Shown here: piece after piece, positions 59,001-60,343 of the stretch | How the letters are laid out: each line of letters starts with the position of its first letter | How positions within the stretch are numbered: position 1 is the first letter of the stretch | From: Escherichia coli | GTDB taxonomy: Bacteria; Pseudomonadota; Gammaproteobacteria; Enterobacterales; Enterobacteriaceae | Assembly (NCBI RefSeq): GCF_046105845.1 | Contig: NZ_CP151004.1 | Length of the DNA stretch: 64,000 nt | Direction: 5' to 3' (one strand) | Notes under the pieces: model-generated | Database searches by the model: none | Told to the model about the DNA's origin: nothing | Seen by the model: the letters and a program-made list of their open reading frames with translations, nothing else | Translations under genes and position numbers: made by a program

Positions 59001-59088
59001 ATGAAGGGTCAACCAGAAGCCAGCTAAGGAGCGTCTCTTTGATGACCTTACGTCTGGCTTCCAGTGCCTGGGGTGAAACCATACTGAT
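58984..59088 (-). pseudogene. ytfA: ytfA C-terminal fragment, separated from its N-terminal part by the IS insertion
   Basis: Minus-strand frame reads [38 protein letters not shown]; joins in frame to the N-terminal fragment at 60834-61055 if about 1745 bp are removed. Confidence 0.45.
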
Positions 59089-59100
59089 ATGTTGACATCC

Positions 59101-59122
59101 TCCACGCCCTGAAGGACGTGGA
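59101..59122. repeat. IS subterminal hairpin at the tnpB-proximal end
   Basis: tccacg-CCCTGAAGGA-cgtgga; partner hairpin ccccg-CCCTGAAGGA-cgggg at 60804-60823 with identical loop on the same strand. Confidence 0.6.
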
Positions 59123-59134
59123 TCCCTGCTACGT

Positions 59135-60343
59135 TCAGGCTGTCGCCTGAATCATTTCGGTGGGTTCCTGCTTCAACGAGCGGCCTGACTGCACCATCTC
59201 TCCACAGGCAAGAACGGCGTGCCCCGCCGCTAAAATGTTACGAGCGCCGTTTACATCGGCGTTCGCTGTATATCCACATGCCTGGCATCTGAATTGACTT
59301 TGTGACAGGCGATTTTCTTTCGCTGTATGACCACAGCACGCGCAACGCTGGCTTGTGTACGCTGGCGGAACAGCAAGCACCTGACCGCCACGCCAGAGCT
59401 GCTTGTACTCAAGCTGGCGGCGCATTTCATACCAGCCCTGATCCTGTATCGAACGGTTTAAACCTGATTTTGCCCGGACATTGCGCCCCGGCTGGCTGAC
59501 CGTACCCGCTGCTGACTTTGACATGTTGCTGACCTTCAAATCCTCAATGACTATCATTGCGTGGTTTTTGCTGACGGTCGTTGTGACTTTGTGAAGGTAG
59601 TCCCTGCGGATATTTGCGATACAGGAATGCAGTCGCTGTATTTTGCGTTTCTGCTTCTGCCAGTTGTTGCTGAATTTGACCTTGCGGCTTAACTGTCGCT
59701 GAAGTCTCGCCAGCGTCTTCTGGTTTTTCTGAAAACTGTTTACAGGCCCAAAGACTGTGCCATCTGACAGCGTGGCGAGTTTAGCCACGCCAGCATCCAG
59801 CCCGACCATTGATGCTGAAGGGTGAACCGGAGTTGATACTTCATTTTCAGTCTGAATACTGATGTACCACTTACCGCAGGACTGGCTGACAGTGACATTT
59901 TTCACAACACCCGTGACCTGACGGCTATTCCGGTAGCGCATACAGCCAAGTTTCGGCAGAAAAATACGGCTGTTTTCCTGATCGAGCTTAACGCCCTGCG
60001 GGTAGCGGAATGCATCATTCTGTCCCCGCTTTTTGAATCGGGGAAAAGCAGCCCGCTTCTGGAAGAAGTTTTTGTAAGCCCGCTCAAGGTCTTTCAGTGA
60101 CTGTTGCAATGGCTGTGACGGGGCATCTTTAAGCCATTGCGTTTCAGTGGCATTTTTCCACTCAACCAGCCAGGAAGCCATTTTCCCGTAAGGGATGTAT
60201 TTATTACCGGCCTCATGATTCTCATTCTGAAGCGCCAGAGCACGATTGAAAACGAAACGACATGCGCCTGCGAAGCGCCTCATTTCACACTCCTGTTGAC
60301 CACCTGGTCTTAACTGGAATTTAAATGCCTGTAATCGTTTCAC
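59135..60343 (-). CDS. tnpB: TnpB (IS605 OrfB family; RuvC-like RNA-guided endonuclease family)
   Basis: 402-aa intact ORF with C-terminal zinc ribbon ([37 protein letters not shown]) and RuvC-like motifs; GTG start at 60341-60343. Confidence 0.9.

Follow-up and report, generated by a model that had tools for sequence, protein, structure and literature searches.

The insertion sequence (IS) that interrupts ytfA on an Escherichia coli chromosome raises the question of whether the 3' end of its tnpB gene encodes the guide RNA (ωRNA) of the TnpB nuclease, and whether such a system could still be at work. We addressed this in a 64,000-nt stretch of contig NZ_CP151004.1 (assembly GCF_046105845.1), hereafter the window, whose gene order (cycA, fklB, ytfB, interrupted ytfA, yjfZ, and rplI) is that of an E. 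coli-type chromosome. An IS200/IS605 element carrying tnpB and tnpA is placed here between ytfB and yjfZ, within the TetR-family gene ytfA. A first-pass annotation, made from the sequence alone, had proposed an ωRNA at the 3' end of tnpB with a guide taken from the ytfA flank. It identified this RNA correctly, as a covarying scaffold followed by a flank that varies among 40 loci now indicates. Comparative sequence analysis makes it very probable that the stretch encodes the ωRNA, also termed right-end element RNA (reRNA), of an IS609-type IS200/IS605 element. Support at the sequence level comes from its position, a covarying structure, a scaffold/guide boundary, a predicted transposon-associated motif (TAM), a target at the empty site, and a protein partner.

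A covarying scaffold at the 3' end of tnpB

We built a covariance model of 149 nt (59240 to 59092) with six helices from nine copies of the element and used it to search 47 genome loci and plasmids. The model matched in full length at the tnpB 3' end in 41 loci, with E-values from 1e-60 to 1e-19, and its matches extended to relatives with 51-61% protein identity in Methylococcaceae, Zetaproteobacteria, Janthinobacterium, and Conchiformibius. The scaffold has the same orientation as tnpB, begins inside the gene near its 3' end, and continues through the right end of the element (Table 1). Helices H1-H3 are wholly inside the tnpB coding sequence, H4-H5 cover its last codons and the stop codon, and H6, which has a similar hairpin at the left end, sits between the stop codon and the IS end, where the first-pass annotation had rightly noticed a conserved hairpin (59122-59101).

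The alignment fitted to the model (41 sequences) had 95.5% of its cells paired and compensatory double changes at 27 of 38 pairs. A structure-independent MAFFT alignment of 34 relatives yielded 93.6% paired cells and double changes at 23 of the 38 pairs. The covariation score of the latter, 0.323, was attained by none of 500 shuffles, and slid controls, in which the pairing partners were moved by 1-3 columns, scored at most 0.11 with no more than 51.6% of cells paired. The single-sequence fold was modestly more stable than shuffles (z = -2.5). The span first proposed for the RNA, 59060-59330, thus contains the whole feature, but covariation supports 59230 to 59092 plus the guide, and 59338 to 59240 weakly. 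Extending the scaffold to 59338 with three RNAalifold hairpins (59338 to 59240) was rejected as too weak, since 86.6% of cells were paired versus 83.6% in shuffled alignments and double-change pairs numbered 7 versus a shuffled mean of 4.4. Long-range pairs from the single-sequence minimum free energy (MFE) fold and RNAalifold, for example 24-25 with 246-247, were likewise dropped as unsupported.

Codon usage provided a separate view of the same stretch. In 14 full-length genes we scored, over all 402 codons, the fraction that differs among codons for the same amino acid. This synonymous difference was 0.20 over the last 32 codons (59233 to 59138) versus 0.43 over codons 1-335, the lowest of 371 windows of that size in tnpB, while the amino-acid (non-synonymous) difference climbed to 0.28 in those last 32 codons versus 0.17. 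Judged from these codon patterns, the target of selection over the tnpB 3' end is the nucleotide sequence and not the protein. The combination of a synonymous low and an amino-acid rise fits the description of the TnpB C-terminal tail as disordered and poorly conserved, the functionally important regions of tnpB and ωRNA being non-overlapping (Nakagawa 2023).

Two side observations arose from these scans. A second synonymous dip in tnpB (0.22-0.25 versus ~0.43) lies apart from the ωRNA at window positions 59534-59623 (codons 241-270), near a promoter-like site on the opposite strand (59529-59557). In Citrobacter amalonaticus, two convergent scaffold/right-end matches stand 20 bp apart, at L048:1219-1368 (+) and 1388-1515 (-), the former scoring 171.7 bits and the latter a degenerate 45.8 bits.

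Table 1. The IS609-type element in ytfA, its genes, and the parts of its predicted ωRNA (window coordinates)
Feature	Position	Strand	Basis or remark
Predicted ωRNA scaffold, 139 nt	59092..59230	(-)	RNAalifold, covariance model, covariation, synonymous minimum, sub-threshold Rfam matches
Scaffold helix H1	59230-59225 with 59219-59214	(-)	
Scaffold helix H2	59208-59204 with 59171-59167	(-)	
Scaffold helix H3	59200-59193 with 59184-59178	(-)	
Scaffold helix H4	59160-59159 with 59126-59125	(-)	
Scaffold helix H5, spanning the tnpB stop codon (59137-59135)	59155-59145 with 59140-59131	(-)	
Scaffold helix H6 = right-end hairpin, 9 bp, UUCA loop	59122-59114 with 59109-59101	(-)	
Invariant tail GGAUGUCAA	59100-59092	(-)	
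Predicted guide 5'-CAUAUCAGUAUGGUUU-3', 16 nt (20 nt reaches 59072, adding CACC)	59076..59091	(-)	copied from ytfA 3' remnant
IS609-type IS200/IS605 element, 1748 bp	59092..60839	(-); top strand = window minus strand	K-12 empty site, nine other copies, BLAST breakpoints
TnpA target site / predicted TAM 5'-TTTAT (core TTAT)	60840..60844	(-)	directly 5' of left end; part of ytfA, not of the IS; found in the empty K-12 site
Left-end subterminal hairpin CCCCGUCC-UUCA-GGGCGGGG	60804..60823	(-)	read from sequence; local covariance-model match to model positions 120-139
tnpB (insQ), intact 402-aa open reading frame (ORF)	59135..60343	(-)	ORF list; NF040570; alignment to ISDra2 TnpB
tnpA (Y1 HUH transposase) pseudogene, divergent from tnpB	60351..60782	(+)	ORF list; NF033573
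ytfA 3' remnant (TetR/AcrR family regulator), end overlapping the 3' end of convergent ytfB	58984..59091	(-)	RefSeq annotation in L001 and IAI1
RAGATH-18 (RF03064) match	59208 to 59165	(-)	29.5 bits, E = 0.008, gathering threshold 44.9
HgcC (RF00062) match	59202 to 59079	(-)	24.6 bits, E = 0.0065, gathering threshold 50
sot0042 (RF02656) match	59262 to 59101	(-)	19.0 bits, E = 0.047, gathering threshold 88

Element boundaries, guide and target

The guide register depends on where the element stops. Its right end finishes at ...GGAGGAUGUCAA (59092) and not at 59089, 46 bp from tnpB, as the first-pass annotation had it; from the gene to the last base of the element there are 42 nt (59134-59093). 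Homology among independent copies is lost past ...GTCAA, which places the end at 59092, and in BLAST alignments other copies match the query through position 249 (= 59092) while empty-site strains match from position 250 (= 59091). The uninterrupted site of K-12 MG1655 reads ...GGTTTAT|CACATCAGTATGG... (TTTAT|CACATCAG across the insertion point), and the window minus strand reads ...GGTTTAT + CCAGTGCGCC...IS...GGAGGATGTCAA + CATATCAGTATGG.... On the K-12 comparison alone the junction is ambiguous by one base owing to a single C. Nine copies at different sites remove this ambiguity, as GGAGGATGTCAA is the terminal sequence in all of them and similarity breaks off right after it, and the copies that retain a left end all begin CC(A/G)... 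after TTAT. Copy comparison and BLAST breakpoints together therefore fix the limits of the element listed in Table 1.

Empty and occupied sites revealed no target duplication and an insertion 3' of TTTAT. Of 10 loci, nine have the tetranucleotide TTAT just before the left end and one has TTAC; the longer TTTAT is found there in eight. A Y1 HUH transposase, subterminal hairpins at both ends on one strand, the lack of duplication, and this fixed 5' tetranucleotide are the features of IS609 in the IS200/IS605 family. RefSeq labels the same locus of strain IAI1 as 'IS200/IS605-like element IS609 family transposase', and in other strains it annotates tnpA and an 'RNA-guided endonuclease InsQ/TnpB family protein' between two fragments of the TetR/AcrR gene ytfA. 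What interrupts ytfA is thus IS609, an ordinary E. coli insertion sequence that has been described before.

A sharp boundary separates scaffold and guide. The last 12 nt of the element are nearly invariant across 40 loci (GGAGGATGTCAA in most of 39), and the 16 nt past the right end agree on average at 4.2 of 16 positions, which equals random expectation; a constant scaffold with a variable flank is what defines a reRNA (Karvelis 2021). The predicted guide is unpaired in both MFE and centroid folds, and no other guide match with fewer than three mismatches was found in the window. The ytfA remnant was correctly named beforehand as the source of a 16-20-nt guide. The register, however, was off by 3 nt (the guide starts at 59091), and the guide has the same sense as ytfA instead of being complementary to it, its pairing partner being the window plus DNA strand.

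The empty ytfA allele has the form TTTAT + CA(C/U)AUCAGUAUGGUUU, which sets a predicted target directly beside the predicted TAM. That of strain Ec1119, TTTAT|CATATCAGTATGGTTTCC, matches the guide perfectly (TTTAT-CATATCAGTATGGTTT); in that of K-12 (TTTAT-CACATCAGTATGGTTT) the third guide position is the single mismatch. TTAT and TCAA are common IS605 cleavage motifs (Wang 2023), and a 2026 study purified an IS609 TnpB for trans-cleavage assays and listed a TTAT-flanked target for it. With GTCAA in front of it, the target at the resident locus should be spared. As to natural variation, guide position 3 (window 59089) in empty alleles is C in K-12 and FDAARGOS_1260 and T in Ec1119 (L002:2991, L058, L059), and it is T in three occupied alleles (window, L001, and IAI1); position 18 (A/C) varies too.

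State of the proteins and points against a working ωRNA

The protein partner is present. The first-pass annotation placed the end of tnpB at 59135, as confirmed by a 402-aa ORF running from 60343 to 59135 on the minus strand, and was also right, at the ORF level, that tnpB is intact and tnpA carries a stop. The TnpB product scored 385 bits against the NCBIfam model guided_TnpB (NF040570; cutoff 100) and aligned over residues 3-376 with ISDra2 TnpB (PDB 8bf8/8exa; E = 3e-52), with D183 opposite the catalytic D191. It retains the RuvC residues D183/E267/D363 and the zinc-finger cysteines C334/C337 and C353/C356, and in other strains the same ORF bears the RefSeq name 'RNA-guided endonuclease InsQ/TnpB'. 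Both halves of tnpA still match the IS200 transposase model NF033573. A premature in-frame TGA at 60636-60638 (codon 96 of 143) removes the C-terminal third of its product; it arose from a single T>G at 60637 that turned TTA (Leu) into TGA, the ytfA copies of L001 and IAI1 having TTA.

Several observations weigh against the ωRNA reading. In the protein, W134C (window 59942) hits a tryptophan that is found in 19 of 19 full-length relatives and in ISDra2 TnpB, where by our own count on the alignment its counterpart is W141 of the WED domain, and L300Q (window 59445) replaces a leucine shared by 18 of the 19 relatives. Codon changes with respect to other ytfA copies amount to about one synonymous per 1-1.8 non-synonymous, a ratio that suggests relaxed constraint on this tnpB copy. 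With tnpA truncated, the normal TnpB substrate is not produced by this copy. At the RNA level, scanning the minus strand from 58850 to 60900, a span that includes the 3' half of tnpB, revealed no sigma-70-like promoter, and no terminator-like site was seen beyond the guide. Production of the ωRNA would thus depend on tnpB transcription; these negative results are compatible with processing from mRNA and prove nothing. A search for a pseudoknot of the ISDra2 core type met with the invariance of the tail GGAUGUCAA, which makes covariation impossible. The helix-5 loop GACA, the only loop complementary to the tail (UGUC) in this copy, was discarded as a partner, since relatives do not conserve it. 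Finally, scanning the whole window at Rfam gathering thresholds gave no match in the ωRNA region.

The last point deserves qualification. The first-pass annotation had proposed a covariance-model search as a check, and this succeeded with our own model in 41 loci; three tnpB-derived Rfam families came up only below their gathering thresholds. A permissive E-value scan of 2.8 kb returned five sub-threshold matches, three of them on this stretch and strand (Table 1) and a fourth at the left-end hairpin. The RNA is not a member of the curated families HgcC, sot0042, or RAGATH-18. Nevertheless, sotRNAs and HgcC are tnpB 3' transcripts (Gomes-Filho 2015), and RAGATH-18 has been tied to TnpB reRNAs (Ren 2024). 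Elsewhere in the window, gathering-threshold matches comprised Ysr276, a Mg riboswitch (Magnesium-II), naRNA4, ES036 + STnc450, ES239, and the RpsF leader (1760-1954, 19605-19720, 36077-36153, 45641-45820, 50392-50514, and 63708-63792), all of them ordinary enterobacterial features.

Alternative readings

The strongest rival is that the locus is a relic, in which the ωRNA gene remains recognizable but no longer works, so that any RNA made would have no active partner or target in the cell. We regard this as quite possible, if somewhat less than probable. The TGA in tnpA, the two private TnpB substitutions, and the nearly even ratio of synonymous to non-synonymous changes with respect to sister copies all speak for it. 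Against it, the tnpB ORF is untruncated and keeps its catalytic and zinc-binding residues, the scaffold is identical to that of the L001 copy and differs at one position (59131) from that of IAI1, and a literature search found no published data on ISDra2 W141, the counterpart of W134. Since W134C affects an otherwise invariant tryptophan, TnpB activity is uncertain, and the enzyme may be impaired despite its intact ORF. The earlier suggestion that this may be an active nuclease locus is not established, TnpB carrying both W134C and L300Q.

Alternatively, the structure could serve transposition as a single-stranded DNA right end recognized by TnpA and not as a functional RNA. H6 is indeed the right-end subterminal hairpin, with a near-identical one at the left end, and TCAA and TTAT are known TnpA cleavage motifs. 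In addition, TnpA works on the same (top) strand, so that G-T wobble pairs cannot separate DNA from RNA. However, five more covarying helices extend ~100 nt upstream into tnpB, under the strongest synonymous suppression in the gene, and have no counterpart at the left end; H1-H3 lie beyond the subterminal hairpin, the putative TnpA binding site. Moreover, truncated remnants without transposase keep the full 149-nt scaffold, and homologous stretches of related elements are TnpB-bound RNAs. This renders a role confined to DNA very improbable.

That a stable 3' fragment of tnpB mRNA regulates tnpA/tnpB or the convergent ytfB without guiding a nuclease is hardly credible either: the original description of sense-overlapping tnpB 3' transcripts, in Halobacterium, was of non-coding RNAs with a growth phenotype (Gomes-Filho 2015), and a transcript continuing beyond the guide would run antisense to the 3' end of ytfB (stop at 59000), but the Halobacterium-type RNAs were later shown to be TnpB guides (Karvelis 2021), and an invariant scaffold with a variable flank in 40 loci fits a guide and not a regulator with a fixed target.

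Proposed mechanism and population context

If the RNA is an ωRNA, its mode of action can be outlined by analogy with ISDra2 and Geobacillus TnpB. The minus-strand precursor, most likely tnpB mRNA, would be processed to the scaffold plus ~16 nt of flank and bound by TnpB. The complex would read the TTAT TAM and cut DNA that has TTAT immediately next to the right flank of ytfA, whether an incoming empty allele or the donor joint remaining after excision. With GUCAA before the target, the resident locus would be spared, and recombination or repair from the occupied copy would restore the insertion. Production of TnpB guide RNA from the tnpB 3' end has precedent (Karvelis 2021), and RNA-seq has recorded transcripts at a tnpB 3' end in E. 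coli K-12 (Gomes-Filho 2015). In the copy under study, the broken tnpA means that no donor joint arises in cis and that the element can generate its target only with TnpA from another copy. Together with W134C, this leaves the system of this copy probably idle or decaying.

To place the insertion in its population, 80-nt probes over the right-end junction or the empty site were counted in 5426 complete E. coli genomes, with at least 80% coverage required for the junction. The insertion was found in 1745 of them (about a third), including IAI1 and O157:H7 strains, and the empty site in 3216 (~59%). The ytfA site is therefore a common presence/absence polymorphism. In the window, the ytfA flanks of the insertion span 58984-59091 and 60840-61130; intact ytfA is a 648-nt TetR/AcrR gene in some empty-site strains (L058 and L059) and a pseudogene in K-12.

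Because occupied and empty states are both common and some empty alleles match the guide beside TTTAT, a TnpB-ωRNA complex could cut empty alleles. The insertion might then behave as a natural allele drive in E. coli, an idea that we consider unlikely. Were it true, TnpB-ωRNA would cut empty ytfA alleles arriving by conjugation or transduction, or made by TnpA in trans, and would thereby convert or exclude them, so that the insertion would be maintained even in lineages that, like this one, have lost a working tnpA.

Earlier publications cover this kind of RNA, the IS609 family, and the TTAT motif, and RefSeq already names the protein an RNA-guided endonuclease. The locus is thus a textbook case and not a discovery, and its practical value is one of annotation: the ωRNA is unannotated in genome records, it escapes Rfam at curated thresholds, and the right end, hence the guide register, needed a 3-nt correction. 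Beyond that, a polymorphic ytfA site with guide-matching empty alleles offers a convenient natural test bed for TnpB retention or homing in a model organism.

Comparison with known elements

Scaffold-bearing remnants and miniatures occur in other genomes. Full-length matches to the 149-nt scaffold plus right end (106-165 bits) were found in tnpB remnants that keep only the last 30-64 codons (L052:1090-1238, L054:1024-1177, L055:1000-1148, L056:1100-1248, and L057:989-1139), in Escherichia whittamii, Photorhabdus, Arsenophonus, and a gammaproteobacterial metagenome-assembled genome. On the Klebsiella pneumoniae plasmid pKpCH_aerob, a ~352-bp miniature (L008:1898-2249) joins an IS609-type left end after TTAT to the last ~250 nt of tnpB and the right end. 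Lacking tnpA and a complete tnpB, it retains the entire ωRNA scaffold, and its annotation is 'hypothetical protein' at most; many Klebsiella plasmid records yielded similar 81.5% matches.

Among Rfam families, HgcC, sot0042, and RAGATH-18 resemble the window RNA in being transcribed from tnpB 3' ends. The first two have in common with it a terminal CCnCGnCC-UUCA-GGnCGnGG hairpin followed by a GAGGA motif, and RAGATH-18 a CCUGUGGAG...GAAGCAGGAA stem. They differ in their source, namely archaeal IS1341-type elements and IS607 elements.

Among the closest known systems is the ωRNA of ISDra2 TnpB from Deinococcus radiodurans (Karvelis 2021; Nakagawa 2023), whose template is likewise the 3' end of tnpB plus the right end. 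Both RNAs have a multi-stem scaffold of ~116-150 nt that overlaps only the poorly conserved C-terminal tail of TnpB, and the hairpin that ends each scaffold, ~10-20 nt ahead of the guide, carries a U-rich tetraloop, UUCA (-22 to -19) here and UUUA (-20 to -17) in ISDra2. In the two systems about 16 nt of the flank serve as guide, the TAM coincides with the left-end target of TnpA, and the nuclease has the same D/E/D triad. The differences lie in the TAM itself, TTAT/TTTAT here versus TTGAT in ISDra2, and in gene arrangement, tnpA and tnpB being divergent here and co-directional and overlapping in ISDra2.

Within E. coli, IS609 (the ISfinder name; IS605c group of Wang et al. 2023) has ends, gene order, and TTAT/TCAA cleavage motifs identical to those of the window element. 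Its insQ/ydcM copy between ydcL and ydcO of K-12 is 96-98% identical over the last ~250 nt, that is, the tnpB 3' end and right end; a literature search combining ydcM with TnpB found nothing. What sets the window copy apart from K-12 IS609 is its location in ytfA, hence a different guide, together with the tnpA nonsense mutation and its private TnpB substitutions.

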